DNA from: Longimicrobiales bacterium
GTDB lineage: Bacteria > Gemmatimonadota > Gemmatimonadetes > Longimicrobiales > Gaopeijiaceae
Length of the DNA stretch: 64,000 nucleotides
Assembly: GCA_963664435.2 (NCBI GenBank)
Contig: CAXXKM010000002.1
Location: forward strand, 768,001-832,000
Direction: 5' to 3'
The notes below the pieces were generated by a model. That model saw only the letters and a program-made list of their open reading frames with translations. It had not been told where the DNA came from and did not search any database. Shown here in pieces: positions 1 through 64,000 of this stretch. Made by a program: the position numbers and the translations under genes. Each line of letters opens with the position of its first letter. Positions within the stretch are counted from its first letter, which is position 1.

Positions 1-317
1 GCGGCTTCCGACAAGGCAACGGCGCCGAGCGTCGGCCAGAAGACCCTGTGGAAGGACGGTGCCTGGGCGGAGTCAGGGTCCGCCCGATCTCCGACATGGG
101 GACCGGGCAACAAGGCCAGCTCGACGATCGTGAGCCCCTCGACATTGCTCGTCGTATAGAACGGACTCCGCCGCGCTTCGGTCATCGCCGCGCTGAGCGG
201 CGCTGGTTTCATGGGTGGCGGCGCGGCTTGTGCGCCCGCGCCGACCGGGAAGGCCACGGATGCGGCCAGCATGAGGCTCGGCGCGAGGGCGTGCGCGATT
301 CGCGGTTTCGTGATCAT
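1..317 (-). CDS. Secreted/membrane hypothetical protein (runs off the window start)
   Basis: Read manually: ATG at 317 with upstream AGGAG; MITKPRIAHALAPSLMLAASVAFPVGAGAQ... is signal-peptide-like; frame stays open to position 1. Confidence 0.55.
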   Translation of the reverse strand, partial: MITKPRIAHALAPSLMLAASVAFPVGAGAQAAPPPMKPAPLSAAMTEARRSPFYTTSNVEGLTIVELALLPGPHVGDRADPDSAQAPSFHRVFWPTLGAVALSEA

Positions 318-1094
318 TGCCCAACTCCTGTTCGATGGCACTCTGGCGCAACCCTCCGGCGGCACACCGGGTGACACCTGCTCGCGAACGGCGGTCGCAA
401 GGGCCGAGTTTCCAGAACTCCCCCGTTGAAAGGGCGGTTGCTCGTGGGACGTGAGGGCCGATCCCCGCGCGGCGGCGCCAATCTCATCCGCCAGCGGAGC
501 GGCCCACGCGAGTACCTCGTCCGGTAAGGTGTCGTCAAAGGTACGTGTATTGACGTGTCGTCGCCTCCGCGACGGCTCAGAGGCCGTTTTCGGCCGATCA
601 GAGAGCTTTTCGGGTAACGTACGGGCCGCAGAATCGCTTGAGACCGACGATCTCGGGTTCCCGGGGGGTAAGGGTAGGGTGGAACGCGGTCTCGCGGGAG
701 GGCGCGCCACCGTCGTCGCCAAGGGTGAGGTGGTCGCTTTCCGCCTCGCCGTCCGGGAGGCCCTCGACCAGAGGCCGGGGGTGGTTGCCCGCGACGGCCC
801 AGTGGGCGGTTCTGGACGGTGCCCTTCGAGGCGGTTTCGGCGGCTCCGCCAAGGGCTGGCTCACGCACGGTAAGAGCGTGAGCCAGCACACGCCGTGTTG
901 AACACGGCGGCTGGCGAGGGGGTGCTGCGCCCCCTTCGACCCCAGCTTCCCGCGCCGATGTCGGAGCATCGGGTAACGGGCGGGGTGGAGCCGGCCCCCG
1001 GGCCGTCGTGAACCCTTGCGACGTGGTATCTTCCTTGAATCGCCGGAAGGCAGCCTCAACGCCGATGGCGGGCCGATTCGCTGGGGAAAGCACG

Positions 1095-4000
1095 ATGGCC
1101 GGACCGAACAAGAAGCTGGTTGGCGCCGTGGAAGCGTATTTCGCCGATCTCGGGCGTGTGCGCGCTTCCGGCGGCGCGACGGGTGAGCGCTCCTACTATC
1201 CGGCGCTGGAGGGCTTGTTGCGCGCGGTCGGAGCCACGCTCAAGCCCAAGGTGTTCTGCGTTCAGGAACTGGCGGATCAGGGGGCCGGCCATCCCGATTT
1301 CGCCCTGTACACGGCGAGGCAGGTTCAGAAGGGCCGTCCGAGGCCGGGGCAGGTTCCCGAGCGTGGCGTCATCGAGGTCAAGGGCGTCGGCGACGATGCT
1401 TGGCTCACGGCGATATCCGATCAGGTGAGCCGCTATTGGGACCGCTACCGTTTGGTGCTGGTCACGAATCTTCGGGACTTCGTCTTGGTGGGCGCGGATG
1501 GTGGGGGAGGCCCCGTCAAGCTCGAAGCCTTCCGACTGGCCGAGGATGCCGACGACTTCTGGCGCAAGGTGGAGACACCCCGCGCCTTCGCTGGCGAGGT
1601 TGGCGCGGGTCTCGGCGAGTATCTGGCCCGGGGGCTCGCGCACCGGGCCGCACTGGCCGAGCCGAAGGACTTGGCGTGGCTGTTGGCTTCCTACGCCCGC
1701 GACGGCTTGGCTCGCGTCGAGGCGGCGGGGGACACGCCGTCGCTCGTGACCGTCCGGTCGGCGCTTGAGGAAGCGCTCGGGATTCGCTTCAAGGGCCAGC
1801 GCGGTGATCGCTTCTTCCGGTCCACGTTGATCCAGACGCTGTTCTATGGCGTCTTCTCCGCATGGGTGCTGTGGTCCCGCGAAGAGGCGAAGAAGAACGG
1901 CCCGCTGTTTGAGGGCCATTACAGCCCTCAGCGGTTCAGGTGGCGCGAGGCAGCTTGGCACCTGCGGGCGCCAGTGCTCCGAGCGCTGTTTCGGCAGTTG
2001 TCCGACCCGGGCGGGTTGCAGTCCCTCGGCCTTGTCGAGGTGCTGGACTGGACATCGGCGGCGCTCGACCGGGTGGACCGGACGGCGTTCTTCTCGCGCT
2101 TCGACGAGGGCGAGGCGGTGCCGTACTTCTACGAGCCGTTCCTCGAAGCGTTCGACCCGGGCCTCCGCAAGCAGTTGGGCGTGTGGTACACGCCGACCGA
2201 GGTGGTCCGCTACATGGTGGCGCGGGTGGACAAGGCGCTTAAGGACGATCTCGGGATCCCGGCGGGGCTCGCGGCCGAGAACGTCTACGTGCTGGACCCG
2301 TGCTGCGGAACGGGGGCGTATCTGGCGGAAGTGTTCCGCCGAATCGCCGACAATCTCGGGGAGCAGGGTCTCGGGGCGCTCGCGGGCGCGGCGGTCCGGA
2401 GGGCGGCAACCGAGCGGGTGTTCGGGTTCGAGATCATGCCCGCGCCGTTCGTGGTGGCGCATTTGCAGGTCGGCCTCACCATGCAGGATTTGGGTGCGCC
2501 GCTGGCGGAGGACGGATCGGAGCGCGCCGGAGTGTTTCTTACCAACGCGCTGACGGGCTGGGAGCCGCGAACGAACAAACCGCTCCCCTTCCCGGCGCTC
2601 GAGGAAGAGCGCGACCTTGCGGAAGCCGTGAAGCAGGACATCCCGATATTGGTGATCCTGGGCAACCCGCCCTACAACGGGTATGCGGGCATGGCGGTGG
2701 ACGAGGAGCGCGAACTCTCGGAAGCCTACCGCACGGTTAAGCGCGTTCGGAAGCCCGAAGGCCAAGGCCTGAACGATCTCTACGTCCGATTCTTCCGCAT
2801 GGCGGAGCGGCGCATCGCGAAGGAGACCGGCCAAGGCGTGGTCTGCTTCATCTCCAACTACTCGTGGCTCGATGGGCTGTCCTTCACCGGGATGCGGGAG
2901 CGCTACATCGAAGCGTTCGACGAGATCCGGATCGACTGTCTGAACGGCGACAAGTACAAGACCGGCAAGGTCGCGCCGGACGGCTCGCCCGACCCGAGCA
3001 TCTTCTCCACGGAAGGAGATCCGGTTGGCATTCAAGTGGGCACGGCCATCGCGACGCTGGTGCGAAAGAGGGACCATGAACCCGCTGAATCGCTGGGGTT
3101 CCGGCACTTGTGGGGACAGGCTAAACCGGAGGAGTTGATCGCCACGGCGGAGGCGGAGCCGAACGCGCTGTACTCCGAGGTTACACCATTGCTGCCGCTG
3201 GGCCTTCCCTTTGCGGAGACGGCGGTGAGCCCCGACTGGTTCGACTGGCCCGCGCTGCCCGAGCTGTTCCCTGTCTCGTTTCCGGGCGTCAAGACGAGCC
3301 GCGACGGGTTCCTTGTGGACACCGACCTCGACCCCCTCCGGGACCGTGTTGGCGAATACTTCGACTCGGCTCTGAGGCATGAGGACATCGGGCGGCGGTA
3401 TCCAAGGGTCATGAAGTCCACAGCGCGGTTCGATGCGCGCGCGGTGCGCGATGCGCTCTTGAGGCGCGGCGGGCCGGACGAGTCGGGATTCATGCGCTTT
3501 GCCTATCGGCCGTTCGACAATCGGTGGCTCTACTGGGAGAAGGATACGAAGCTGCTCGACGAGAAGCGTGCCGACTACCGTCCCCATGTGTTCGAGGGGA
3601 ACCGATTCTTGGTGGCCCAGAAGAAGCCGCGCCGGGAATGGTCACCGCCCCAAGTCATCTCGCCGCTCGGTTGCCTCGATTTGATGGATCGCGGGGCCAC
3701 TTGCGTCCCGGTTTGGCTTCGCGAGGAAGGCTTGGGCGCGGCGACCGGCACCGAACGCCGGCCCAACCTGTCGGGAGCGGCGCAAGGGTATCTTGCCCGC
3801 CACGGTCTCGGTGTCGAGGACCTGTTCCACCACGTACTGGCCACCCTTCACGATCCAGCGTATCGAGAAGTCAACGCGGGAGCGCTGCGCATGGAATGGC
3901 CGCGCATTCCGCTGCCCGGCTGGCCGGACGGCAAGTCCGAAGGAGTGGCGGAAGCAATCGCCCGGTCAGCGGCACGAGGCCGCACGATTGCCGCACTGCT

Positions 4001-4462
4001 CGATTCGGACCGACTGGTGTCAAGCGGAGCGGGGACCGACTTGCGCCCCGAAGTCGCCGTGCCGAGCACGGTCGCGGGGCGGAGGACGATTTCGCCGTGA
4101 GTGCGGGCTGGGGCCACTTTGGCACGGGCGACGCCGTGATGCCCGGCCGGGGCCGCATCGTCGAGCGTGCCTATCGACCCGAGGAGCGCGCAGCTTTGGC
4201 GGCACGCATCGCCGTACTCGGTGAGACCACCTTCGATGTCTACCTGAACGGGGAGGCGTACTGGCGCAACGTCCCCTCCGCCGTCTGGGACTACCGGCTC
4301 GGCGGCTATCAAGTGCTCAAGAAGTGGCTTTCGTATCGAGAGCGCGCGGTCTTGGGCCGAAGGCTTCACGCCGAGGAAGTTCAGCACTTCACCGACACGG
4401 CGCGCCGAATCGGCGCGTTGCTGCTGGCCACATCCGGCGAACCCGAGAGGAGTTCACAATGA
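1095..4462 (+). pseudogene. Type ISP/IIG-like restriction-modification enzyme (N6-adenine MTase plus C-terminal specificity domain), frameshifted near 4075-4085
   Basis: N-terminal PD..EVK nuclease-like motif, WYTP, motif I DPCCGTG, motif IV GNPPY. The ORF stops at 4100, but the typical C-terminus (GWGHFG...VWDYRLGGYQVLKKWLSYR) continues in another frame to 4462. Confidence 0.85.
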
Positions 4463-4671
4463 CCGAGAAGCTCATCGACCGAAACCCCGATGTCTTGGGC
4501 GGTACGCCCGTGTTCTCGGGGACCAGGGTTCCCGTGCGCATCCTGATGGAGCACCTCGAAGCGGGCGACCGTCTCGACGACTTTCTGGACGACTACCCCA
4601 CGGTGACGAGGGAGCAGGCCGTCGCGCTGCTCGAACGGGCCACGGTGCAACTGGTCGGCGATGCCCGATGA
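4459..4671 (+). CDS. DUF433-family antitoxin
   Basis: MTEKLIDRNPDVLGGTPVFSGTRVPV...DDYPTVTREQ; ATGA overlap with the upstream stop; GAGGAG RBS. Confidence 0.9.
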   Translation: MTEKLIDRNPDVLGGTPVFSGTRVPVRILMEHLEAGDRLDDFLDDYPTVTREQAVALLERATVQLVGDAR

Positions 4672-4994
4672 AGGTGTTGCTCGACGAATCCGTTCCAAGG
4701 CGACTCGCGGCGGAGTTTCCCGATTCGTTCGGAACGCGCACGGTCCAGGAAATGGGTTGGGCCGGGTGCACGAACGGTGAGTTGCTGCGACTCGTGGCTG
4801 AACATCGATTCGGTGTTCTTGTCACGGTGGACCAAGGGTTCGCGTTTCAGCAGAGCATCCGGGACCTTCCGATCCCCGTCGTCATCATGATCGCCGGTCG
4901 CACCCGATTGCAGGAATTGCGCCCCCTCGTACCGGAAGTGATCGCCGTTCTCTCGGGCAATCCCGGTCGGAGGATCCACCGTGTCGTGGCCTAA
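4668..4994 (+). CDS. DUF5615/PIN-like (VapC45-type) toxin
   Basis: MKVLLDESVP...NGELL...LVTVDQGF; translationally coupled to DUF433. Confidence 0.88.
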   Translation: MKVLLDESVPRRLAAEFPDSFGTRTVQEMGWAGCTNGELLRLVAEHRFGVLVTVDQGFAFQQSIRDLPIPVVIMIAGRTRLQELRPLVPEVIAVLSGNPGRRIHRVVA

Positions 4995-5089
4995 GAGATC
5001 TTGCCCACGGGGGCCGGCACCCGTCGAGTCCGGCAAGTCGGCGGTGTCGCGGGTTCGTCGCTTACGGCAATGGAGACTGTCCAGCGACA

Positions 5090-5833
5090 TTGACGCTGCC
5101 CGACCGCTCTTCGAGTTTTCCCGATAGGGCAATTCCCGACTTCACCGCGTCCATCCGGGACGCACTTGGCCTCGAAAGGGTAACCACATGCAACTTGCAT
5201 GATGCCGTCATGCAGTACATGGAGCGCGAACTGAAGAAGGACTCCGGTGTGAAGAACGCCACCTTGTTCACCGGTGCCCGCGAGATCGACGAGTCGGTCG
5301 GGGAGCTCACCCTGCAACAGTTTCACGCCAAGTATCGGCTACCGGCGACCCGGCGGATAGCGCCACGAAAGCAGCCCGCACGGCAGCAGAAGCCGGTCCC
5401 GGCACCCGACCCCGCGCCCGCGGCATCCGGCGACGGTGGCACCGTCATGGAGTACGTGGAGCGGACGCTCGAAGCAAACCCCAACGTCGCGAACGCGGAC
5501 CTGTTCGCGGGTGCCCGCGAGATCGACCCCTCCATCGCGGAACTCTCAGGCCGACAGTTCCACGCGAAGTATCCCCTGCAAGTGAAGGCGCGGCTCGCAA
5601 GGGCCGCCGCTCCCGAGCCCGAGACGCCCTCGGCGCCGGAGGTCCCAACGTCCGAGGAGCCCACCGCCCCGCAGGCACCGTCGGCGGTGGCGGGCGACCC
5701 GCTCGCGGTTCGCCGCCTGTTGCTCGATCTGGCCAAGGAACTCGCGAACGCGGAGAGCAAGGCGGAGGTGATCGAGGTCATGGCCCGGCTGGACGACTAT
5801 GTGGCCAAGATCATGGAGGCGGCACAGGGCTGA
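5090..5833 (+). CDS. Hypothetical protein with a duplicated ~45-aa helical domain and a C-terminal helical domain (start uncertain)
   Basis: Two copies of VM.Y.ER.L......NA.LF.GAREID.S..EL...QFHAKY separated by Pro/Ala linkers. Confidence 0.75.
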   Translation: MTLPDRSSSFPDRAIPDFTASIRDALGLERVTTCNLHDAVMQYMERELKKDSGVKNATLFTGAREIDESVGELTLQQFHAKYRLPATRRIAPRKQPARQQKPVPAPDPAPAASGDGGTVMEYVERTLEANPNVANADLFAGAREIDPSIAELSGRQFHAKYPLQVKARLARAAAPEPETPSAPEVPTSEEPTAPQAPSAVAGDPLAVRRLLLDLAKELANAESKAEVIEVMARLDDYVAKIMEAAQG

Positions 5834-5986
5834 GTCGTCCGCGAGCCTCGGCAGCCGGACATCGGCTTCGAGGGCCGCGAGGGTGCGGCCGTGACGCGCA
5901 CGGGTTGCGCGGCTCCGGCGTCCGGCCTCGGGCTTCCGGGGACGGACCATTGCGGGCGGCCCTCCTCGGGCCGCGCGGATGCCGCT

Positions 5987-6044
5987 CGGGGGTTCGGGGG
6001 TTTCCCCCGGCCAGAGGTTTTCGTGAAACGAAAACACATCTGGC
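5987..6044. other. oriT-like double hairpin
   Basis: CGGGGG-TTT-CCCCCG (5995-6009), then GCCAGA-G-GTTTTCGT-GAA-ACGAAAAC-ACA-TCTGGC (6010-6044); directly upstream of the integrase. Confidence 0.45.
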
Positions 6045-6188
6045 TCCACGGTAACCCGCAGAAACGAACGGCCCAGGACGCGCCTCACGCGGAAGCGGCC
6101 CGGGCCGCCAACTCTGGACGACGCGCCCGCGCGGCGCGAGGTTTCAAACACGCAGATCGTGCAGTCCATCATTCGGAGGTATCGAACG

Positions 6189-7349
6189 ATGGTACGCACG
6201 AAACGAAACCGGCGCTCCTACGGCGCCGGAGAATGGGGCCGCAACAGAGTCAGGGTGTTCCCGGACCCGAAAACCGGCCTGTTCCAGATTGAGTGGCGCG
6301 AGAACGGTCGAAGGCTGACCCGGTCGCTTGGGCACCGCGAGTGGACTCGCGCCAAGCGGCAGGCGGACGAGTTCGCCGCCGGGTTCGTTGGACCCGAGAT
6401 CGGGGGCAAGGCGAAAGCCGAGCCCGACCCGCTCACGCTGGAGATGCTCTTTGACATCTACGGTGAGGAGGTGACGCCCACGAAGACGGAGCGGGTCCGG
6501 CACCGGGACAGAATCGGGACGAGGATGTTCCTCGACCTCCTCGGGCGGGATCGAAGGCCCGAGACGTTGTCGCAGAGGGACTGGGACCGCTTCATCCGGG
6601 AGCGCCGGGCGGGCAGGATCGGACCGAGCGGGAAACCCGTGTCCAACCGGACCATCGAGTTGGACCTGAAGTTCCTGCTCGCGGTGCTCAACTGGGCGAC
6701 GAAGTCCAGAGACGAGGAAGGCCGCATGTTGCTCGACAGAAACCCGCTGAGGGGCCTGACGACGCCCAAGGAGAAGAACCCCGCCCGGGTCGTCCTCTCC
6801 GAGGAGGAGTACCAGGCGATGCTCGGGGTATCCCGGCAGGTCGATTGGCGGTTCCACGTCGCGTTCGTGCTCGCCCACGAAACCGGCCACCGGATCGGGG
6901 CCATCCGCAACCTTCGGTGGGGGGACATCGATTTCGAGGGCCGTGAGGTGAGGTGGCGCGCCGAGCACGAGAAGACCGGCTACGAGCACGTCACGCCGAT
7001 GACGGACGAGGCGGTCGCGGTGTTGCAAGAGGCGGGCGTGATGGGCACCGAGGCCGGCAATGCCCCGGTGCTGCCCTCGTCGAGGGACGCCACGCGGTCG
7101 GTGGACCGCTCTTCCGTCTTTCATTGGTGGAGCAAGGCCGAAACGCTCGCGGGACTGGAGCCGAAACCGCGGCGGGGCTGGCACTCGCTGAGGCGCAAGT
7201 TCGCCAGCGACCTGATGGACCTGCCGCTCAAGGTGCTCTGCGAGCTTGGCGGCTGGCGGGATGCCCAGACGGTGCTCAGGTGCTACCAGAGGCCGAGCGC
7301 TGGACAACTCAGGACGGCACTGGAAGGCCGCAGTAGGGTGCGCGGCTGA
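6189..7349 (+). CDS. Tyrosine recombinase/integrase
   Basis: Catalytic signature TGHRIG, WHSLRR, GGW, CYQ; GGAGGT RBS before ATG 6189. Confidence 0.93.
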   Translation: MVRTKRNRRSYGAGEWGRNRVRVFPDPKTGLFQIEWRENGRRLTRSLGHREWTRAKRQADEFAAGFVGPEIGGKAKAEPDPLTLEMLFDIYGEEVTPTKTERVRHRDRIGTRMFLDLLGRDRRPETLSQRDWDRFIRERRAGRIGPSGKPVSNRTIELDLKFLLAVLNWATKSRDEEGRMLLDRNPLRGLTTPKEKNPARVVLSEEEYQAMLGVSRQVDWRFHVAFVLAHETGHRIGAIRNLRWGDIDFEGREVRWRAEHEKTGYEHVTPMTDEAVAVLQEAGVMGTEAGNAPVLPSSRDATRSVDRSSVFHWWSKAETLAGLEPKPRRGWHSLRRKFASDLMDLPLKVLCELGGWRDAQTVLRCYQRPSAGQLRTALEGRSRVRG

Positions 7350-7360
7350 AATCCGGACCA

Positions 7361-7436
7361 GCGGGAATCATTCGGCGGGAATCCGGCCCACGAAACTCCT
7401 AAGGCCATCGGGTGCAATCAGTTGTAAACCCGATGC
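7361..7436 (+). mobile_element. Putative element terminus (att end) of integrase 1
   Basis: GCGGGAATC boxes at 7361 and 7375; CATCGGGT..ACCCGATG inverted repeat; ends AAACCCGATGC; same layout after integrase 2. Confidence 0.6.
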
Positions 7437-7439
7437 ATC

Positions 7440-7698
7440 TTGTCGCCTCGGCGGGCGTCACGCCCAGCACCGGCCCGATGCCGTAGAAGACGATCGCGGC
7501 GGGGACGATGTGGGAGAGGCGGGCGAAAACCTTGCGCTCGATGACGCGGTCGTCCCACGAGGAACGCGTCCGGGCCGCGACCCGCCGGATCGCGCCGTGA
7601 ACGATCCGGGTGGTCACCCAGTCGACGATCCACGCGCCGGCGACGAGGATCACGAGCCCGGCGACCAGGCTCAGCCAGTTGTCGGGTAGGAATGGCAT
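7440..7698 (-). pseudogene. 5' part of an MscS-family mechanosensitive channel gene, truncated by the element end
   Basis: TM segments plus RTRSSWDDRVIERKVFARLSHIVPA, as in YbdG/MscS N-termini; runs into element sequence after VTPAEA. Confidence 0.7.
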
Positions 7699-7885: not shown

Positions 7886-10243
7886 CTACCCGATCAACCG
7901 GCGCAGGGCGGCGATTTCGTCCTGGATCGAGCGCTCGATATCGTCGGCACGGCGGTCGGCGTCGAGTTCCTCGATCTGCGTCTCGATCTCGCGGATCTTG
8001 CCGTCCAGGTCGTATTCCTCGATCTGCGACTCGAGCTCCGCGATCCTGCCATCGAGGTCGTATTCCTCGATCTGTGCTTCGATGGCGGCTACGCTCCCCG
8101 CGAGATCATACTCCTCGATCTGCCCTGCCAGTTCGGCCAGCCGCACTTCCAGGTCATCTTCCACGCGCTGCGTCGAATCCCGATACACCTCGTCGAGCGT
8201 CTCCAGACTCTCACGCAGCCGTTGCACACTTTGCGACAGCCCGTTCAGAGCCTCGCGCACGGCCGTCGCTTCCGGAACCTGCCCCGCTCTCCCGAATGCC
8301 CGGGACCAATCGACATCGTCCAAGGACCGCGTCGCACCCTGAACGTCGATTCGGTCGACGCGGTAGACTCGTTCGGCAGCTTGCCGGACCGCTGCAAGCG
8401 GTCCCTGCAGCCGGATGGCGCGAACCCTGGCGGAAGCCATCTGCGCGTGCAGTCCGGCAACATGCGCCCTGAGCGAAGCGATCTGACCGTCCAACGTCGC
8501 AACGTGCCAGCGGTGAGACGCGATCCTTCCCTGGAGCGTCGCGACCCAACCCCTGTGGGACGCGATCTCGCCGCGGAGGCTGGCTTCCCTGCCGCGAATC
8601 TGCTGCGCCTCACCGGAGCGTGCCAACACGGTGAACATCAAGTCGCGCCAATCCCGGGCCTCGGCGTCCAACGGTTGGGGCCGCCCATCGATGCTCCAGT
8701 CGTACTCGAGGCCATCGGGACCCGATGTGATGACCATCCGATGCAACATCTCGGCCTTCGACTGCAGCACCACCCAGCTGGCGGCATCCATGCTCTCAAG
8801 GGTTGTGCCGCTTGCGGTCATGACGACGTCGCCACGGCTTCGCATGCAGAGCTGCATCCCGTCCACGGTCGTCTGGACGGTCGTTGATCCACCGTCCCGC
8901 GTCTGGCGTACGCTCCAGAGATTGCAATCGAGCTCCTGCAGGGAGATGACTGCCGGGGGCTCCGGCACCGCGGTCTCCGGAGTGGTTGGCTCCGGCACCG
9001 CGTTCCCCGGGGACGCCGGCTCCGGCACCGGGTCCGCTTCCGCCATCGGCTCTGGTGAGGGAGCAGGAATCATGCGCTCCTGCGGTTGCGCCTCGCCCGA
9101 GGCCGTCTCCTCCACGTGGGGAGCGGGCTGCGCGGCCGAATCCCCCGGGACCGGATTGGCGCAGGCGATGAGCGTCCCCGCCACGCTGATGCCCGCCAGC
9201 GCGGCGGTGGTGCGGGCGAGCGAATAGCGGGGGCGATCCTGCTTCAGGATGGACATGATCCGGTTCTCCAGTTGCGAGCGCTGCACCATGGGGAGGGCCA
9301 GCACGGCGGGACCGTCCTTCGTCTCCGACGCGAGCGAGAACAGGTGCCGGGCGTACGCCGAGGGGCGGGTGCCGAGCGCCAGCACCTCCTCGTCGCATGA
9401 TCGCTCGGCGGCGATGGTCGCAGCCCGCCACGCCAGCCAGCTGAGGGGGTGGAACCAGTAGAGCGCCACGGCGGCACGTCCAACCACCTGTCGGAGCGCG
9501 TCCCGGCGGCGGGCATGGACCAGTTCGTGGGCCAGTACTACCCCACGGCGCTCCGGCGACCAGCCTTCCGCCGCGGACGGCAGAAGGATCACCGGTCGCC
9601 ACGCGCCGCCCGCCATCGCCGTGGCCACACTCGAGCTCATCAGGACTCGGACTTCGTCCCGAACGCGCAGGCGCCTTCGGATGGTCCTGAACTGTTGCAG
9701 CCAGGCCGGATTTCGCACCGGGACCGCTTCGCGGACCAGCTTCCGGAAGCGGAGGCCTCCGACTCCCAGAGACGTAAGCGTTGCAACACAGCCCAGAGCC
9801 CAAACCAGGAACGCGATGCCGGCGGGGGTCACCGGGACGGGCTCGCCGCTTGTTCCGGGCCCGGCCGCGCGTGACGCCAGCGTGCCGGAACCGGATGAGG
9901 CCATCGAGCCTTCGATCCGGCGCGGGGACCCGAATGAGGTGGTTGAGCCGCGCATCCCGGGCGCAACTCCTGCCGCCGGTGCCTCCTGGGCCGCCATCTC
10001 GAAGGACGGGCCCTCGGCCTCAACGCCCCTCTCCGGCAGGATGGGCACCGACCACGACGGGCCCAGCAGGCTCACCACCGGCAGCGCCAGCAGCACGACA
10101 AACGTCGTCGTCCATAGCAGGTGCAGGGTTCGGGCTGATCCCCGGCGCGCGAGCCACGCCAGGGCCAATGCCAGGCAAAGGACCAGCGTTGCCCTCGCGG
10201 CAAGTCCAGCCACACCGGCTGCGGCAGCGTCCAACCCGCTCAC
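7886..10243 (-). CDS. M56 (BlaR1/MecR1-like) metallopeptidase with a coiled-coil repeat C-terminus
   Basis: N-terminal TMs, HELVH zinc motif, ERSCDEEV; 14-aa and 16-aa (IEEYDLDG) repeats; coupled to BlaI. Confidence 0.9.
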   Translation of the reverse strand: MSGLDAAAAGVAGLAARATLVLCLALALAWLARRGSARTLHLLWTTTFVVLLALPVVSLLGPSWSVPILPERGVEAEGPSFEMAAQEAPAAGVAPGMRGSTTSFGSPRRIEGSMASSGSGTLASRAAGPGTSGEPVPVTPAGIAFLVWALGCVATLTSLGVGGLRFRKLVREAVPVRNPAWLQQFRTIRRRLRVRDEVRVLMSSSVATAMAGGAWRPVILLPSAAEGWSPERRGVVLAHELVHARRRDALRQVVGRAAVALYWFHPLSWLAWRAATIAAERSCDEEVLALGTRPSAYARHLFSLASETKDGPAVLALPMVQRSQLENRIMSILKQDRPRYSLARTTAALAGISVAGTLIACANPVPGDSAAQPAPHVEETASGEAQPQERMIPAPSPEPMAEADPVPEPASPGNAVPEPTTPETAVPEPPAVISLQELDCNLWSVRQTRDGGSTTVQTTVDGMQLCMRSRGDVVMTASGTTLESMDAASWVVLQSKAEMLHRMVITSGPDGLEYDWSIDGRPQPLDAEARDWRDLMFTVLARSGEAQQIRGREASLRGEIASHRGWVATLQGRIASHRWHVATLDGQIASLRAHVAGLHAQMASARVRAIRLQGPLAAVRQAAERVYRVDRIDVQGATRSLDDVDWSRAFGRAGQVPEATAVREALNGLSQSVQRLRESLETLDEVYRDSTQRVEDDLEVRLAELAGQIEEYDLAGSVAAIEAQIEEYDLDGRIAELESQIEEYDLDGKIREIETQIEELDADRRADDIERSIQDEIAALRRLIG

Positions 10244-10623
10244 CGTCCCTCCTCCGCGGCTTCATCGATCATCGCCTTGATGCGCTCGCGCTCGGCCGGG
10301 GTCAGATCGCTTTCCCGGAGCTTCAGGAGCGTGGCGACCGCGCCTTCGACGGAGCCGCCGAAGAACGTCGACAGGACGTGACGCATGGCGGAGCGGCTCG
10401 CCCGGGGCACCGGCGTCGTCGGAGCATAGACGTAGCGGGGTCCGTCCAGCTCCCGGGTCAGGTGTCCCTTGTTGATCAGGATGCGCAGGATCGAGCGCAC
10501 GGCCGAGTCCGTCGGCGGGTCTGCCATGCGCTCCCGGATCTGGACGGCGGTCGCGCCGCCCGACTCGTAGAGGATGTCCATCACTTGACGTTCACGCCTG
10601 CTCAGCGGGGGAAGCTCGCTCAT
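10240..10623 (-). CDS. BlaI/MecI/CopY-family repressor
   Basis: LSRRERQVMDILY...SAVRSILRILINKG...FFGGS. Confidence 0.92.
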   Translation of the reverse strand: MSELPPLSRRERQVMDILYESGGATAVQIRERMADPPTDSAVRSILRILINKGHLTRELDGPRYVYAPTTPVPRASRSAMRHVLSTFFGGSVEGAVATLLKLRESDLTPAERERIKAMIDEAAEEGR

Positions 10624-10680
10624 GTGTCTCGCGCTCCGGCCTGGGTTGTTCGCGGGCCACCGGACGGCACCATAGGACAA

Positions 10681-20595: not shown

Positions 20596-20605
20596 GCGCG
20601 TTCTT

Positions 20606-20679
20606 CGGGACGTGGCGCAGTCCGGTAGCGCACCTGAATGGGGTTCAGGGGGTCGCCGGTTCGAATCCGGCCGTCCCGA
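20606..20679 (+). tRNA. tRNA-Pro(GGG), CCA not encoded
   Basis: Acceptor stem CGGGACG/CGTCCCG; anticodon arm CCTGA-ATGGGGT-TCAGG; T-arm GCCGG-TTCGAAT-CCGGC. Confidence 0.96.
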
Positions 20680-20737
20680 TTCTTCGGGTCAAGAGTGTCG
20701 CGGACACGACGTTATTCCGTCCGGCAAGGAGCGACTC

Positions 20738-29223: not shown

Positions 29224-30951
29224 ATGATCGCGCCTGCAGACTATGGCTGCGCCACGCGCGAAGCGCCCTCTTCCAAAGAGGACGACGAACTCCGGAAGCT
29301 CGGCGAACGCATCGCGGAGCTGGCGGCCCGCATCAACTCCGCAGAAGCGCGGATGATGAAACTCATCGCCGAATTCGACCGCCGGGGCGGCTGGAAGGAC
29401 GGCGGCTTCTCGTCCTGCGCCGAATGGCTGGCGTGGCGGCTCGGCATGACCATCGGCCCGGCTCGTGAGCGCGTCCGGACGGCCCGTGCGCTGGAAAACC
29501 TGCCGGAGACGGCGGATGCCCTGGCGGCCGGCAGCATCTCGTACACCAAGGTGCGGGCGCTTACCCGGGTTGCGACCCCCGAGCGCGAGGCGGAACTGCT
29601 GGAGTTCGCGCGCGCGGCCTCGGCGGCGAGGCTGGAGCAGAGGGTGCGCATGTGGAAGAAACTGTCCCGCGACGAAGAGTTGACCGCGGAGGAAGCCCGC
29701 CATCGCAGCCGAACCTTCTCGGTGTTCGTGGACGGCGACGGGATGTACGTGGTGAAGGGCCGGCTCGAGCCGGAGGTCGGGGCGGTGCTCATGCGGGCGG
29801 TGGAGGCCGCATCCGATGCGCTCTTCCGGCGTGAGGGCGAAGCGGGTGCCGGTAGTCACGAGGAAGATGCGGGTGCCGGTCGTCACGAGGACGATGCGGG
29901 TGCGGGTCGTCGCGCCGGTGACGGCAATCCGCGCCCCGAACCGAAGCAGCGCCGGGCGGATGCGGTGGGTCTACTGGCGGAGCGGGCGCTCGCGGCGGGG
30001 TTCGGAGCTGACGGGTGCCATGAGCAGCGGCAGACTCACCCCCAAGAGGAGCCGCAGACTCACCCCCATGAGCAGCGGCAGACCCACCCCCGTGAGCAGC
30101 CGCAGACTCACCTCCGCGGGGAACCGGCGCCCCGATCCGACACCGAGACGCCGGCCCAACCCCGGGCCGAGTCCGGGACACGCGTCGAGTCCGGCACCCG
30201 GGCCGAGCGGTACCAGGTCATGGTTCATTGCGATGCCGCGACTCTCGGGGAGGAAGGTGAGCCCGGGCGCTCCGATCTGGACGGGATCCGCGTTTCCGCG
30301 GAAACGTCGCGGCGCATGGCGTGCGATGCCGCGGTGGTCGCGATGGTCCACGCGAAGAACGGCTCGGTGCTGAACGTGGGCCGCAGGACGCGCACGATTC
30401 CGCCCCACATCCGGCGGGCGCTGGAGGAACGCGACCGCGGATGCCGCTTCCCAGGGTGCGGCTGCAGGTTCACCGAGGCCCATCACGTGAAACACTGGGC
30501 CGACGGCGGTGAGACGAGCCTCGGGAACACCCTGTTACTCTGCCGGAGGCACCACCGGGCCGTCCACGAGGGGCGAGTGAAGGTGTCCGTGAACGGGGGC
30601 GGGACCGTGCTCTTCGTCACCCCGAAGGGGAGGATGCTTGTCGACGCGCCGACGAGGCCCAAAGCGGCTCGTGGCCGCGCGAGAAGGGAGATGATCGCCC
30701 GGAACACCCGGCCCGGGGGTGGCCTCGCCGGCGAGTCAGCCTCGGGCCTGCTGCCGGTCCCATCGGTTCATGGCCCCGCCCCGGACGAGACCGCGGCCTC
30801 GCCCCTGCCGCCGGTCCCATCGGTGTATCGCGGCGCCCCTGGGAAGGGCGATGGCATCACGCTCTCGAACGGAGCTGCGCTTTACCGCGATTCGGAGATC
30901 CCATGGGAGATCGAGGCCGCCGCGCGAGAGGCCATGGAGGAGTCTCCGTAA
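29224..30951 (+). CDS. DUF222 + HNH endonuclease (13E12-like)
   Basis: RRADA, RRMACDA, RDRGCRFPGC, EAHHVKHWADGGETSLGNTLLLCRRHH; internal 27- and 24-bp tandem repeats. Confidence 0.9.
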   Translation: MIAPADYGCATREAPSSKEDDELRKLGERIAELAARINSAEARMMKLIAEFDRRGGWKDGGFSSCAEWLAWRLGMTIGPARERVRTARALENLPETADALAAGSISYTKVRALTRVATPEREAELLEFARAASAARLEQRVRMWKKLSRDEELTAEEARHRSRTFSVFVDGDGMYVVKGRLEPEVGAVLMRAVEAASDALFRREGEAGAGSHEEDAGAGRHEDDAGAGRRAGDGNPRPEPKQRRADAVGLLAERALAAGFGADGCHEQRQTHPQEEPQTHPHEQRQTHPREQPQTHLRGEPAPRSDTETPAQPRAESGTRVESGTRAERYQVMVHCDAATLGEEGEPGRSDLDGIRVSAETSRRMACDAAVVAMVHAKNGSVLNVGRRTRTIPPHIRRALEERDRGCRFPGCGCRFTEAHHVKHWADGGETSLGNTLLLCRRHHRAVHEGRVKVSVNGGGTVLFVTPKGRMLVDAPTRPKAARGRARREMIARNTRPGGGLAGESASGLLPVPSVHGPAPDETAASPLPPVPSVYRGAPGKGDGITLSNGAALYRDSEIPWEIEAAAREAMEESP

Positions 30952-47016: not shown

Positions 47017-47985
47017 CTACTCCACGACCGTATGCCGGCCGGGCAGGTTGGCGGGGGCGTACCCCAGCGCGGGATCGTCCATGCGCGCCAGGACGCTTCT
47101 GTGGATGAGCGCACCTGGCGGGATGGTTCGCGGCGCCGGCCTCCACAGCTTCCACAGGCCGGTTCTCGAAACGTGGAGGCGGCCGGCGGGATCGGGTGAG
47201 AGCCTGCGGCGCCAGTGCGGTCTCAGGCGCAGGCCCCGGGCCTCGGCCCTGTTCAGCATCCATTCCAGTGCGATGTCGGAGAGGCCGGCATCCGTATACC
47301 AGCCGCCGACATCGGAGTGGACGCCGGCGAACCAGACCTGCTCGATCGTCTGGTGATCGGCCTTGACGTCCTCGCTCCACATGTTGGCCGGGAACTTCTT
47401 GCGCTGCTCGTCGATGGAGACCGCGTGGTAGCCGTACTTCACGTCCTGGTTCAGCGTTGAATCGAAGAACTTCCGGCCCCAGAACCAGCCCATCGAGCCG
47501 ACCGTGTCCCATACGCCGATGAGGTGCGGACGGCAGTCGTGGCAATAGGTCCGCTTGAACCCGGGCGCCATGCCGTGACGCGCGCGGTCGTTGTAGATCC
47601 GGGACGCGTACGGCACCAGGTTGAGGCTGCCCTTCTGCAGCAGGCCGCAAAGGTTCAGCATCCCGGCCAGCGCGCGCACGGTGAACGCGCCGCGGCTGAA
47701 GCCGAACAGATACAGCCTGTCACCCGGCTCGTACCGGTCCATGAGGAACCGGTAGGCATCCTCTATGTTCTGCTGGAGCCCGGCACCGAACGCCTTCCCC
47801 AGCGTCCGGCCCACCCGCCGTCCGAGCGTCCTGCCGAGAAAGCTGAAGGTTCCGACGCCCGGATCGTAGAAGGCGACCTGGTCCCCGTCGCGAACGATCG
47901 CCTCGTACAGCTTCACGACGTTGGTGTTGTTCGAGCCGTATTCGTTGCCCGTGCCGTCACAGCACACGACGATGTTCTTCGACAT
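47017..47985 (-). CDS. DUF2235 (Tle1-like phospholipase) protein
   Basis: CCDGTGN, GFSRGA, GVWDTV, FAGVHSDVGG. Confidence 0.92.
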   Translation of the reverse strand: MSKNIVVCCDGTGNEYGSNNTNVVKLYEAIVRDGDQVAFYDPGVGTFSFLGRTLGRRVGRTLGKAFGAGLQQNIEDAYRFLMDRYEPGDRLYLFGFSRGAFTVRALAGMLNLCGLLQKGSLNLVPYASRIYNDRARHGMAPGFKRTYCHDCRPHLIGVWDTVGSMGWFWGRKFFDSTLNQDVKYGYHAVSIDEQRKKFPANMWSEDVKADHQTIEQVWFAGVHSDVGGWYTDAGLSDIALEWMLNRAEARGLRLRPHWRRRLSPDPAGRLHVSRTGLWKLWRPAPRTIPPGALIHRSVLARMDDPALGYAPANLPGRHTVVE

Positions 47986-48111
47986 GTGTGTATTCCGTTG
48001 GTGATGGTTGCAGTCGAGAGTCGAGTTCGGTCATAAGTCTGGCAGAGAAGGCTTGTCTCCGCGAGACTTCCGATGCGTGGATTGTGCAGTCCATCATCGA
48101 AGGGAGGCAGC

Positions 48112-48474
48112 GTGCAACGCGTTCAGGGATTCGGCGGGTTCTTCTTCCGGGCGCAGGACCCGGCAGGACTTGCGAAATGGTATGAGGATCACCTCGGCAT
48201 CAATCCCGCCCCGAAGAACATGGAGATGCCGCCCTGGGTGACCGAGTCCGGGGTCACGGTCTTCGGACCCTTCGCCGCCGACACGGACTACTTCGCCGCG
48301 GACAAGACGTTCATGCTGAACTTCCGCGTGGCCGATCTGGACGCGATGATCGCACAACTGAAGTCCGCGGACATCGAGGTCAGCCACGAAAGCGAGATGG
48401 AGGGCATCGGCCGCTTCGCCCGCATCCACGACCCCGAAGGCAATGCGATCGAGCTTTGGGAGCCGGTGGGGTGA
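48112..48474 (+). CDS. VOC/glyoxalase family protein
   Basis: RVQGFGGFFFRA...LNFRVADL...HDPEGNAIELWEP. Confidence 0.9.
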   Translation: MQRVQGFGGFFFRAQDPAGLAKWYEDHLGINPAPKNMEMPPWVTESGVTVFGPFAADTDYFAADKTFMLNFRVADLDAMIAQLKSADIEVSHESEMEGIGRFARIHDPEGNAIELWEPVG

Positions 48475-48482
48475 GAAGGGCT

Positions 48483-48920
48483 TCACTGCCAGGCGGGGAC
48501 GCGGATCCCCACAGCGACTCCTCCCGACCGGTACCACGCCGGCCCAACCCGCAGCTCCGCGTTGCTCTCCTCAGTAATGGCTTGTTCGATGGCACGGACG
48601 ACGACCATCGCGGGCAACCCGATCAGAGCTCCAACCCCCGCCGCCTTGGCGATGGTCTCGGCGTGCTCACCCGCGCCTTCGCACTTTGGTACGGGCGGCG
48701 CGACACAGAAGCCGGCCGCGGGTGCCGGGGGCGGGGCGAGGTAGCTCTCCCCGGAACACTGGCTCACCCCCACGAGACTTCCGACAACAGCGCCAGCCAG
48801 GATCCCCTCGACGATGGCCCTCTCGTACCAGAGCCACTCGGTGTCAGCCGGTGGTTCCTGATTCTGTGCAATGAGCGGAGAGGAGGTCGCGAGCGCGACC
48901 AGGGCGAGTCGCTTGAACAT
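48483..48920 (-). CDS. Secreted/membrane hypothetical protein
   Basis: Signal peptide, Gly-zipper-like hydrophobic segments. Confidence 0.55.
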   Translation of the reverse strand: MFKRLALVALATSSPLIAQNQEPPADTEWLWYERAIVEGILAGAVVGSLVGVSQCSGESYLAPPPAPAAGFCVAPPVPKCEGAGEHAETIAKAAGVGALIGLPAMVVVRAIEQAITEESNAELRVGPAWYRSGGVAVGIRVPAWQ

Positions 48921-49039
48921 GAAGGAGGCTCCCGAACTCAAGGGTCACCGCGTAGCGCAGCGTTTTACGGTGATCCCCGAACGTAGCGACCTGCTTCTGG
49001 CGTCGCGAGATAGCCGATAGGATCGCGCGTGGCATCAGT

Positions 49040-49648
49040 GCCTCCTCTTCGACTACAGCCGCCGGTGCCGGCAGCGAGGCGTTGACGCACCGTATGACTT
49101 TGTTATCCAGGAGCACGCTCCTCGCTCTTTTACCGCGGCAGCCGACCGGGACCGGCTCGCGCGCCGTGGCATCAAGCTGCCGACGACAACGGCAGCCCGG
49201 GCGGCGGCCTTCTCGCAACGATCGGCTACGAAGGACGAAGCTACGAGGCCTACTTGAACCAGCTGCTTGGGCTGGGGATCTCTCGTCTCTGCGATGTTCG
49301 GCAGAACCCCCTCAGTCGCAAGTGGGGATTCTCGAAGCGACTCCTCTCTCAAGGCTGTGAAGAGCTCGGCATCCGGTATGAGTCCTTTCCGGAGCTGGGC
49401 ATCGCATCCAGGCACCGCGCCAGTCCCGGCGACCGGGCATCCTACAGCCGCCTCTTTGCTCGCTACGAAACCACGACTGTGCCGCGCTGTTGGGACGCCG
49501 TGGCTCGAATCGCGGGGGATGGATCGACGCGCGAGAGCGCGTGGCGATCACCTGCTATGAACGCGATTCACGCGACTGTCATCGTTCCCGCCTCGCTACG
49601 GCCATCGTCAAGAGCGCCTCCAGGTCCCTCTCGCCGAGACACCCGTAG
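49040..49648 (+). pseudogene. Degraded DUF488 copy
   Basis: Nucleotide paralogue of 61044-61814 with an internal deletion and frameshifts. Confidence 0.85.
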
Positions 49649-49728
49649 GAGGGCATAGCCCGCCCAGTCAGGTCCAAGACGGTCACCGACACGCCATCAC
49701 CAGATCCTGCCGATTCCGCAGGCGTCCG

Positions 49729-50360
49729 ATGCCGCATCCGCGGATACGACCAACTGGAGCGCGCGTCCGCCGCGAGAGGATGGTGCCCGGGCGGGCGCGG
49801 CGGGCGAGGGCGCCGGTCGACGAGGGGTGGGTCGACATGGAGGCTTGGCGGCGTGCCGAGGCGCAGGCTTGGGAGAAGGTCGAGGATCGGCGCATGCTGG
49901 AACTCTCGCGGCTGGAGAGCCGGGCGCGGGAGGAATGGGCCGAGCTGCTCAAGCGGCAGGAGGACATGCGCCAGAGGCTCGACCGGGAGAGCCGCTCGCT
50001 GCTCGGGCGGCTTCGGATCTGGCGGATCGACCGCTCGTTGCGGGAACTGGCCGGGGCGGTCCGGGGCCGGGAGGACCTTGTCGAGGGCTGGCGTGAGGAT
50101 CTCGACCGGTACAACAAGGGCGAGCGAGCCGCGCCGGGCAAGGCACACGCCGACAGCGCTCGGCAGATCGAGAGGAAGGTGCGCGAGGTGTACCGAAAGG
50201 GGCTGCAAGACGAGGAACGGCACGCACGGATCACTGTCCGGACCTCGTCAAGCGGGCGGCGCAGGAGATGAAGGAGCGCGGCCTCAGCATAACCCGCATC
50301 CCCGTACGGCCGCCCCGGCCCCTAGGCCCCGAGCGTGGCGGCGGAGGATTCGAGAGGTGA
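49729..50360 (+). pseudogene. C-terminal remnant of a relaxase/mobilisation protein
   Basis: Charged coiled-coil (SLLGRLR) ending, after a frameshift, in ...GPERGGGGFER*; no catalytic domain visible. Confidence 0.45.
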
Positions 50361-50677
50361 ACATTGACTCCTCGTTCCTCGCCAAGCGGGTCGTTCCAGA
50401 ACGGCCGAACCCAGAGCGGTTTTGGCGCATCTCTAGGGGCTCTGGGGATCGCCCAAGATCGACGATCGCCGACCTCCGAAGGGTGCTCGGGTCGGGTGAG
50501 AGTAGGGCTCCAGCACAGCCTCGACGAGGAACCGAGGGGATCCCGAAGCGGACCCGGATGGCTGCCGGGCTCTCGCCCTGAGCTAGCGCCATCCTCGCCC
50601 GGTCTTTCGCGACGAGACCGTCGAAGCCCGAGACTGCCTTGATGGCATGAATGGTCGCAGCACGGTAAAATAAGGTT

Positions 50678-51190
50678 GTGGTGTTCCGTTCCCCTTTGAC
50701 TCCCGGTTCCCCCCGCTCCGAGCGGTTGACCGCGAGCCCATGTCATGCACGTTGGAGGGTTCCCTTGCGCCGAGCCATTGATTCTCACACGTCGTATTCG
50801 GAACGGGTTGCTCAACTGATCCCGGCAGAGGTCGTCGCGGCCCACCTGACCATCCAGGGGTTGGTCTACAACCAAATCACGATCCGGGACCGTGCCATCG
50901 AGATAACGGCAGGAGTGCTGTTGGTCCTTCTCCCCTTCTATCTTTGGAGGTTGGGAGTTACGACGATGAAGCAGATCGTTCTGACGATGGGGAGCTTCGT
51001 CGCCTGGGTTCTCGCAGTCAGCCTCCCCGTCCATCAGAGATCCGGGTTGGACCCGCTTTGGGGGTCGATCATCCTGATCCTGTGGACCGTAGTGATTCCT
51101 GTCATCGCAGCCCCCAGCGTAGCGGGATCCTCTCCAGATGCGGACGATATGACGGCAAGTGGGGGAGGCCAGGGAGGGAGAACGGGATGA
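50678..51190 (+). CDS. 4-TM membrane protein (start uncertain)
   Basis: YSERVAQLIPAEVVA followed by TM helices. Confidence 0.65.
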   Translation: MVFRSPLTPGSPRSERLTASPCHARWRVPLRRAIDSHTSYSERVAQLIPAEVVAAHLTIQGLVYNQITIRDRAIEITAGVLLVLLPFYLWRLGVTTMKQIVLTMGSFVAWVLAVSLPVHQRSGLDPLWGSIILILWTVVIPVIAAPSVAGSSPDADDMTASGGGQGGRTG

Positions 51191-51975: not shown

Positions 51976-52232
51976 ACACTCACGCTCGGGGTGGGGTCTT
52001 GCGGTTAGGGCGTTCGCGAGGCGCTCCGTTCACCCCGTGGCGCGGAAGGTGGATCGATTCGCTGGCCTCCTGTCCGAGAGCCGGCGCGAGACGCTGAGTC
52101 CGGTCGCGGCGAGCACGCGCCCTCCCGCGGTCAGAGCGGCCGTTCGGCCCCGGGAGCGCCGCGCCTGCCGATACGGACCTAGGCTGGAAGTTAGCCGAGG
52201 CGCGTGCCTCGGTACCTTTGATCGTTCCCCAG

Positions 52233-52987: not shown

Positions 52988-53012
52988 ACGTCAGGGTTCT
53001 CGCATTGTCGCC

Positions 53013-62556: not shown

Positions 62557-62851
62557 CGGCCTTGGTGACTCCTCCCCTCGCTGCGTGCTCGTAGCGTCGG
62601 TTGACGAACTGGAAGAATAGCATGGTGCCGCTGCGAGTGACCAGCAGATAGCGGATCTCGTTAACGATCAGGAGTCGCGCCGGTCGCATGCCCGTCGTGA
62701 TCGTAGACGAACATGGAGATGCCGCCCTGGGTGACCGATTCCGGGGTAACCTATGCTGGTGGCCGGGACGGGATAGCGCGCTTGTCCCAACCGCAGTTGG
62801 AGGTTGATGTGGTTCCCGATATCCTGCCTCGCGGCCGAAACCCTAACGTTA
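62291..62851. repeat. Copy 2 of the long direct repeat (includes istB and VOC scraps)
   Basis: Matches 52233-52987. Confidence 0.92.
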
Positions 62852-62860
62852 CGGCATGCG

Positions 62861-62940
62861 GCATCATGTTTGTATCTTTCTGTGGTCGTTAGAGTTACAG
62901 GATTGTCAGGCCGGATTCCCGCTGTTTGACTCCCGCCGAA
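62861..62940 (-). mobile_element. Putative element terminus of integrase 2
   Basis: Minus strand: GCGGGAGTC-N5-GCGGGAATCCGGCC, then 48 nt ending AAACATGATGC. Confidence 0.6.
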
Positions 62941-62949: not shown

Positions 62950-64000
62950 TCAGCCGCGCGGTCTCGGGCGGGCTTCCAGTGCCTTCCGAAGCTGTCCCTC
63001 GTCGGCTCGCTGATAGCACTGAAGCACCGTCTTGGCGGTCTTCCAGCCTCCGAGGTCGCAGAGGACCTTGAGTGGCTGGTCCATGAGATCGCTCGCGAAC
63101 TTGCGCCTCAACGAGTGCCAGCCCCGCCCACGCTTGGGTTCGAGTCCCGCGAGCTTCTGGGCTCGGTTCCACCAGAAGCGCACCAGCGTCCGGCCCGCGC
63201 ACCGCGACGGATCTCGTGGTGCGGGGAGCACCGGAGCAACCTCGATCCCGGCGCTCCGCTCTCGCGCCTCCTCAAGGACGGCGACCGCCTCGGCCGTCAT
63301 CGGAGTCCGGTGTTCGTAGCCTGTCTTCTCGTGTTCGGCCCTCCACCGGATGGCTCGGGCTTCAAGGTCGATATCCGGCCACCTGAGGTGGCGGATAGCC
63401 CCGATTCGGTGCCCGGTCTCGTGTGCGAGCACGAGCGCGACGTGAAACCGCCAATCGACCTCCCGGGACACCCCGAGAAGCGCCTGGTATTCCTCTTCGG
63501 ACAACACCACCCGCGTGGGGTTCTTCTCCGTGGGCGTCTTCAGACCCTTCAGCGGGTTCGAGCCGAGGAGCAGCCGGCCCTCCTCGTCCTTCGACTTGGC
63601 GGCCCAGTTGAACACGGCGATCAGGAACTTCAGATCGTGTTCGATCGTCGCGTCGGACACCGGTTTGCCGCTCGCTCCGACCTTGCCCGCGCGCCGCGCC
63701 CGGATGAACCGGTCCCAGTCGCGCCGGGAGAGCGTTGAAGGCTTGCGGCCTCGTCCGAAGAACCCGAGGAACATCCTCGTCGCGGCCCGGTCGGCCCGCT
63801 GCGACGCCTCCGCCTTGGTGGGCGTCACCTCTTCACCGTAGATTTCAAACAGCTTGTCCAGCGTGAGCGGCTCGGGCTCGGACTCCGCCTTGCCGTCGGG
63901 CGCGTCGATGAACCCGGCGGCGAACTGATCCGCCTGCTTCTTCGCTCGGGTCCAGTCCCGGTGCCCGAGCGACCGGGTGAGCCTGCGACCGTTCTCGCGC
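62950..64000 (-). CDS. Tyrosine recombinase/integrase, paralogue of 6189-7349 (5' end outside window)
   Basis: TGHRIG, WHSLRR, GGW, CYQ; long identical peptide stretches; frame open to the window edge. Confidence 0.93.
   Translation of the reverse strand, partial: RENGRRLTRSLGHRDWTRAKKQADQFAAGFIDAPDGKAESEPEPLTLDKLFEIYGEEVTPTKAEASQRADRAATRMFLGFFGRGRKPSTLSRRDWDRFIRARRAGKVGASGKPVSDATIEHDLKFLIAVFNWAAKSKDEEGRLLLGSNPLKGLKTPTEKNPTRVVLSEEEYQALLGVSREVDWRFHVALVLAHETGHRIGAIRHLRWPDIDLEARAIRWRAEHEKTGYEHRTPMTAEAVAVLEEARERSAGIEVAPVLPAPRDPSRCAGRTLVRFWWNRAQKLAGLEPKRGRGWHSLRRKFASDLMDQPLKVLCDLGGWKTAKTVLQCYQRADEGQLRKALEARPRPRG

Follow-up and report, generated by a model that had tools for sequence, protein, structure and literature searches.

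Tn916-type elements use coupling sequences, and the genes of Tn916 are expressed by read-through across the circle junction. The int gene of lambda is retroregulated by sib, a nuclease substrate. The closest analogue of the elements described here is ICEHptfs3/4 (TnPZ) of Helicobacter pylori, in which a heptanucleotide is duplicated at the junctions, 40 integration sites occur in 45 genomes, and each genome offers about 550 copies of the motif; gene disruption and nesting are also on record (PMC4234485). XerT, the recombinase of ICEHptfs, belongs to the simple Xer type and lacks an arm domain (bioRxiv 542381). In the case of mv4 Int, which works with degenerate core arms, it is overlap identity and not overlap sequence that decides specificity in vitro (bioRxiv 2023.11.06.565760). 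The integrase clade of the HE-PICIs has switched repeatedly to new sites within other mobile elements (PMC10111431), CTnDOT tolerates mismatched overlaps (PMC2817482; bioRxiv 2023.11.06.565760), and the targets of Tn916 are relaxed and AT-rich (bioRxiv 542381).

The element family described here resembles ICEHptfs3/4 in its duplicated heptamer and its many sites. It differs, however, in using 80 different 7-mers among 149 non-tRNA right ends, none of them the one fixed AAGAATG of ICEHptfs, and in combining an arm-domain integrase with elements of 4–50 kb at about 30 copies per genome. The family is not a member of ICEHptfs, given its variable motif and the additional N-terminal domain of its enzyme. 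With lambda-type integrases and mv4 Int it shares a three-domain integrase, arm boxes on both sides, and an identical 7-bp overlap; lambda-type integrases normally use one chromosomal site, whereas here the overlap has changed many times among natural lineages, some of which insert at many sites. Many target sites and arm-type repeats at both ends are features in common with Tn916, Tn1549, and CTnDOT, but unlike Tn916 and CTnDOT the overlaps here match and the targets are GC-rich. The doubled arm motif of the HE-PICIs lies 81 bp upstream of the attP centre, compared with 83 nt here; the HE-PICIs are phage satellites, each site group of which is coherent and aimed at prophage late genes, and a pairing between int leader and far end is not among the features described in the accessible part of that report (PMC10111431). 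A literature search, limited beyond open-access work, found the family described nowhere, although the TIGER promiscuous-clade paper could cover it.

The window analysed is a stretch of 64,000 nt, positions 768,001–832,000 of contig C2 in genome G000; X-numbers below denote public sequencing runs, searched as contigs. In an initial annotation of the window, the end behind the first of two integrases was thought to cut an mscS-like ORF. This ORF is a 5′ fragment of the gene for a 434-aa MscS, split by element 1, which measures 9,157 bp with one repeat counted (C2:766,287–775,443). The far end of the element lies at C2:766,287, with the remainder of mscS to its left, and excising the element in silico rebuilds the gene. 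A naturally short ORF was rejected, since mscS is uninterrupted in 13 of 13 fetched relatives, seven with CGCCTCG and six with variant 7-mers at the site. The right junction is crossed by contigs from X15 and X20 (either run may be the window's own sample) and the left junction by contigs from X15 and X1, in all cases with 0 differences; a mis-assembly at position 7440 was rejected on the strength of the X15 and X20 contigs. The search for empty sites and excised circles succeeded in part. One X16/X17 contig (one sample) joins the flanks exactly at the predicted base, and the same empty junction, seen from the junction, is visible in X18 and X11, but an attP circle junction was not found among the contig matches listed from the public runs. 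Because contigs drop rare forms, missing circles are no evidence of absence. Element 1 disrupts mscS as a strain-level presence/absence. The features of the window are collected in the table.

Table. Coordinates of element 1, element 2, and their associated features within the window.
Feature	Position	Strand	Basis or remark
Element 1, in-window part	1..7443	+	Far (left) end ~1.7 kb before window start
Type ISP/IIG restriction-modification gene, cargo	1008..4100	+	Pfam, PADLOC
DUF433 + DUF5615 pair, cargo	4324..4994	+	Pfam
Inverted repeat	6009..6044	.	Also upstream of several sibling integrases; beside decayed mobC-like start ~5952 (minus strand)
Predicted int leader hairpin ("lock")	6152..6201	+	5-nt unpaired toehold, stem burying start codon, Shine-Dalgarno in loop
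Tyrosine integrase, 386 aa	6189..7349	+	PF00589; N-terminal beta-sheet + helix domain
Two direct GCGGGAATC boxes, putative arm-type Int sites	7361..7383	+	Position, spacing, co-orientation
Element 1 inner core arm	7437..7443	+	Consensus in family ends T-G-Y
Overlap/direct repeat CGCCTCG, 7 bp	7444..7450	+	Second copy C2:766,287-766,293; single copy in empty mscS site
mscS 5′ fragment	7451..7698	-	Remainder left of element 1
Element 2 overlap CGTAACG, 7 bp	62847..62853	-	Centre of palindromic target; register as in element 1
Element 2 box pair, putative arm-type	62914..62936	-	Boxes at 62936 and 62922
Integrase 2, 3′ part	62950..64000	-	Gene start C2:832,107

The integrase of element 1 carries the catalytic R-K-H-R-H/W-Y set, with R235, K262, H332, R335, W356, and Y366 invariant in 30 rows. 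Pfam matches the catalytic domain only, and no NCBIfam model matches the N-terminus, for which strands (residues 11–46) and a helix (52–63) are predicted with pLDDT of approximately 61–79 over the N-terminal domain. In a fold search full-length lambda Int ranks second after XerA, aligned over 391 columns; Tn1549 Int is also found among the matches, weaker than lambda Int. The protein has the tested features of lambda-type heterobivalent integrases. There are 32 matches above 50% identity in its own genome, about 25 of them near full length, and 20 paired elements occupy 7.7% of this genome, in which the family has about 30 copies. Matches to the integrase, numbering 1–45, are present in 17 of 18 same-genus genomes. 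Most of the named relatives are MAGs of Longimicrobiales/Gemmatimonadota, the rest being a few bins with other labels, and 11 of the 20 runs containing the stretch carry a sponge metagenome label.

Both integrases in the window are followed, as first described, by two GCGGGA(A/G)TC boxes 14 nt apart (7361 and 7375; 62936 and 62922 on the minus strand). Of 172 distinct right ends across the family, 166 have GCGGGA at box 1 and 147 have it at box 2; these counts are partly by construction, as the right ends were located by the box motif itself. The boxes are far above chance. Two more GCGGGA boxes, co-oriented, are found at the far end of element 1 (C2:766,405 and 766,427), and because of this recurrence and the lambda-like three-domain layout of the protein the boxes are probably arm-type sites for Int, in agreement with the initial annotation. 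The sequences are also, as it proposed, the ends of a tyrosine-recombinase element family. The following 48 nt (7389–7436; 62908–62861 on the minus strand), ending in GATGC and with TAA at equal offset, are present in both window copies, but do not constitute a conserved terminus: AAAC occurs in 12 and GATGC in 13 of the 172 ends, and the agreement of the two window copies is therefore a coincidence. Aligning the homologues confirmed the boxes and not GATGC. Element 1 extends 7 nt past GATGC, and the crossover repeat is the next 7 nt; GATGC does not border the crossover, and the approximately 7 bp that had been suggested as a possible coupling sequence form the element's inner core arm. The far or left end, a second conserved end type, gave 45 matches in a genome pattern scan, 3 or 4 of them false. 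In 171 ends, the interval from the arm boxes to the crossover never contains five T in a row.

Element 2 spans approximately C2:830,847–843,133, with its far end near C2:843,133, and a sibling element of about 7 kb is nested within its int leader. Its integrase-side end had been placed in unrelated DNA. It lies instead in a dispersed palindrome, CCCTGACGT(A/T)ACGT(C/T)AGGG, which is the target of the entire clade and is used in 15 of 15 classified ends. A dif-like or integron attC reading of this palindrome was dropped by eye because its arms flank a 7-bp centre matching the family register. About 10 empty copies are found in G000 (for example C1:121,688, C1:888,650, and C3:1,457,565) and could represent an operator or a small repeat. 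The region beside this end (window 48000–62800) has the look of an accretion hotspot, containing many small ORFs, mostly without Pfam matches, together with a glyoxalase, an IstB fragment, and DUF488; a gene with a Tle1-like domain is found at 47017–47985.

Of the 52 right ends that have a candidate far end, 45 share with it an exact 7-mer that departs from the fixed register by no more than one base, a count that includes one probably spurious pair (C2 287094) and related sequences that are not independent events. Two of the other seven share a 7-mer at a larger shift, and five are without a far end of their own in the DNA examined. Shuffled pairing of the ends gives a mean of 1.9 exact matches versus the 45 observed. 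This control is generous, because the script that paired the ends took the best candidate and tolerated small shifts of register, steps that had no counterpart in the shuffle. In G005, from which 30 right and 30 left ends were fetched, there are 12 exact pairs and 1 pair with a single mismatch. Since the identical 7-mer stands at both junctions, the exchange is likely conservative and of the lambda type, and depends on homology rather than on Tn916 coupling. A right end followed by a left end is found at C3:727–853 (junction at about 810), 3 nt short of the expected register, and may be a tandem or an aberrant attP-like arrangement; this junction, the sole one of its kind in the genome, adjoins the contig start and counts against the attP model.

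The 7-mers track the integrase tree and drift stepwise. Of 26 pairs of integrases that are at least 95% identical and sit at different loci, 24 have 7-mers that are the same or one base apart, while pairs below 80% identity have a mean of 4.4–4.6 mismatches. Close relatives retain the 7-mer yet insert in unrelated DNA. In the host flanks (82 right, 34 left) the signal consists chiefly of a C at position +2 (90%) and a G at position −2 (76%). The genome offers 89–317 sites that fit the target rule of element 1. We consider it highly probable that these are lambda-type integrative elements with clade-dependent 7-bp targeting. Int would bind the GCGGGA boxes through its N-terminal domain and, in the element 1 clade, would read about two bases beside the overlap, leaving roughly 90–300 candidate sites per genome.

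It could also be that the integrase protein reads the 7-mer together with its flanks, and that these are ordinary site-specific integrases that evolve fast, the scattered insertions being secondary sites. Such an explanation fits the correspondence between 7-mer and integrase tree and the return of several clades to one site (mobC, int codons, palindromes, and an oriT-like hairpin, a target class that over-calls by taking in any flank starting GCTGGCT), and off-target events of HE-PICI integrases are documented in the accessible part of the report on them (PMC10111431). There is, however, no repeated primary site in the element 1 clade, whose integrases are at least 86% identical: nine ends, that of element 1 included, show eight different flanks, one flank occurring twice. 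Moreover, integrases at least 90% identical can differ at 4–5 of the 7 overlap positions, including a swap of att ends. One such swap (L081) combines a CGCGTAG-clade integrase with the end of another clade and with a 7-mer that differs at five bases, in keeping with an address that resides in the DNA. Recognition of the 7-mer by the protein is, in our estimation, improbable. Relaxed target choice, which the initial annotation had attributed to these elements, holds for the element 1 clade, with 7 distinct flanks among its 8 other ends, but is not family-wide, as the palindrome and tRNA clades attest. Its wider suggestion of a promiscuous transposon of the Tn916/CTnDOT type, with non-matching coupling sequences and little or no need for homology, is largely refuted and very improbable, for although there are many unrelated targets, arm boxes at both ends, a Tn1549 Int among the fold matches, and one single-mismatch 7-mer pair, the 7-mers at the two junctions are identical in 45 of 52 cases, that of element 1 is the native allele of the empty site, and relatives reuse their 7-mer at new loci.

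With a 7-bp address held in the DNA, the 7-mer may drift through occasional integration with one mismatch or through exchange of att ends, and this drift would retarget a lineage without a new protein, some clades having regained longer specificity. If this is true, one enzyme scaffold reaches dozens of targets by means of a rewritable DNA address. The address is readable in the element ends, and target switching is thus directly testable. An Int that needs a matched 7-mer and about two flanking bases would also be a candidate DNA-programmable insertion tool for GC-rich bacteria.

Target specificity varies by clade. Longer flanks are kept in several clades (GCTGGCT, CCCTGA/TYAGGG, and tRNAs), GCTGGCT being retained by one large clade, and protein-read specificity consequently matters in these clades. 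Of 171 ends, 23 lie within the int genes of siblings, 7 within mobC, and 1 within a relaxase; a second palindrome is used by 6 ends. This second palindrome, TCTGCCAAAATGGCAGA, is the target of another clade and has 23 copies in G000, often as pairs 41–42 bp apart (for example C2:148,196, C2:410,248, and C3:713,754). A conserved hairpin approximately 100–140 bp upstream of mobC, a putative oriT, is the insertion site of TGGGTAG-type siblings in the same genome (C1:1,162,910; C2:1,098,033; C3:44,452; C3:1,148,858).

The earlier observation that neither end in the window lies at a tRNA, with tRNA-Pro(GGG) free at 20605–20680, is correct for the window, but basal members of the family use tRNA anticodon loops. 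Non-tRNA members form one branch (SH-aLRT 99) with the tRNA users outside, in a quick tree built with IQ-TREE from 99 of about 208 rows, where 3 of 30 intended outgroup proteins fell inside the family. Among distant relatives (35–47% identity), a tRNA directly follows int in 15 of the 19 listed and a tRNA fragment in 3, with neither in the last, so that tRNA use is probably ancestral. The family offers a natural view of integrase retargeting, as a related series from tRNA-specific through palindrome-specific to near-promiscuous. At G000 C3:1,151,049–1,153,554 two members flank one tRNA-Val head to head, one element restoring the 3′ half of the tRNA and the other supplying the 5′ half, with both crossovers at or beside the anticodon loop. 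In G005, two left ends are found back to back on opposite strands at C1:4,300,861–4,301,001 and again at 4,320,449–4,320,589; the first pair shares one 7-mer, and one site has therefore apparently been used in both orientations.

A further feature of the family is a predicted RNA lock and key. Positions 6152–6167 of the int leader are complementary, on the same strand, to a 16-nt "key" at C2:766,345–766,360, about 50 nt inside the far end of element 1. In 99 of 99 leaders the start-codon region is paired by a hairpin with about five unpaired bases at its 5′ side. Across 44 cognate leader/key pairs the duplex comprises 671 Watson-Crick pairs, 32 G-U pairs, and 1 mismatch; shuffled partners have a mean of 5.0 mismatches, with 0 of 2000 shuffles as good as the cognate set, and compensatory double changes are found in three lineages. 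One of the keys, that of G033, was found by a direct DNA scan after a degenerate pattern search had missed it. When the whole elements (10–32 kb) of distant relatives with 35–47% identity and other leader sequences were scanned, 10 of 15 had their best complement 43–57 nt inside the far end and 2 more had a tied best there, where the 15 exclude 5 of 20 integrases whose far end was not called by rule (G079C2 was missed despite a visible end and key) and include as a miss G134C11, whose far end was wrongly called. On this sequence evidence the pairing of leader and key is probably real.

Folding models suggest what the pairing might do. The modelled cost of opening the ribosome footprint drops from about 19 to about 11 kcal/mol with the far end in 41 of 43 elements, as against 2 of 43 with a wrong-strand control. 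In equilibrium folding the AUG has a mean pairing of 0.95 with the key versus 0.98 without it; it is mostly paired even with the key, and unlocking is therefore partial. The probability of key-leader pairing exceeds 0.5 in only 27 of 43 full-length models. The key itself sits in a covarying stem with 87% of cells paired, for which 0 of 500 shuffles are as high on three of five measures but not on the remaining pair. RNAalifold favours a different fold of the left end, one with which the most frequent wobble is likewise compatible. Scans for sigma-70 consensus promoters found none at the far end or around int, and Rfam gave only three chance-level matches at the far end, none at the key. On the simplest reading, transcription of int would continue through attP once the element has become a circle, and the 16–19-nt complement in the far end would then open the lower stem, so that Int is made more readily and the element can re-integrate. 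In the 17 of 176 leaders in which an xis-like gene overlaps the int start, translational coupling could open the lock to permit excision. Activation of int by the key in the circle remains a tentative proposal, slightly less likely than not.

If the pairing is real, it might instead repress Int, the duplex being a nuclease substrate in the manner of sib, or the key might be a small RNA that acts in trans and comes from the left end of the integrated element. A duplex of 16–19 bp could be cleaved, the AUG stays paired in the models, and the key sits within a covarying stem of its own. Even in the absence of the key, however, the leader is closed, and the key lowers the opening cost; covariation between cognates, moreover, favours action in cis over pooled action among about 40 ends. 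We regard repression or action in trans as unlikely. Somewhat less likely still is that the complement is a DNA feature, such as inverted Xis or repressor sites or repeats that conversion has homogenised. Co-evolution within DNA is possible for inverted repeats, the motif is pseudo-palindromic, and in 17 of 176 leaders it doubles as the coding end of an upstream helix-turn-helix, xis-like gene. Against this, the non-Watson-Crick positions on the sense strands are 32 G-U to 1 mismatch, the two copies tolerate different substitutions, the leader copy forms one arm of the start-codon hairpin, and between distant elements the sequence has changed fully while pairing and position are kept.

The predicted lock and key resembles lambda sib and Tn916 read-through in that expression depends on formation of the att junction, but differs in that the far-end sequence is predicted to pair with the int leader and relieve the start-codon hairpin. 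The attP junction would place the key RNA behind int, and the start codon would be unlocked only in the circle, tying Int synthesis to the excised state. A literature search, limited and mostly without subscription papers, found leader/far-end pairing described nowhere, and such a mechanism is undescribed as far as searched. We favour as likely a reading in which the annotated motif is the end of a 9.2-kb element, a 7-bp match to attP sets most of the targeting, and Int translation is predicted to be unlocked by RNA pairing across the attP junction. A broader evolutionary proposal, that the clade left ancestral tRNA sites by means of a rewritable 7-bp address, so reaching sibling int, mobC, and oriT sequences, and that the whole clade senses excision by a toehold switch, falls somewhat short of probable.

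The cargo of element 1 includes a restriction-modification gene that may be frameshifted, since its C-terminal part lies in another frame (3524–4462), and a DUF433 + DUF5615 pair, which we take to be toxin-antitoxin-like. The element is without a relaxase and retains only a decayed mobC-like start and a hairpin; the inverted repeat at 6009–6044 is a possible oriT. The sibling nested in element 2 encodes MobC and has a weak PF03432 relaxase match, and the G000 genome contains 9 relaxase loci. Type IV secretion genes were not seen in the elements examined. Transfer between cells would rely on MobC and a MOBP-type relaxase, which some copies encode and others would borrow. Elsewhere in the window, a BlaI/BlaR1-like pair (Penicillinase_R and peptidase M56; 7886–10680) is found upstream of mscS, its M56 protein containing a long coiled-coil-like repeat, and a DUF222-HNH gene is found at 29224–30951.
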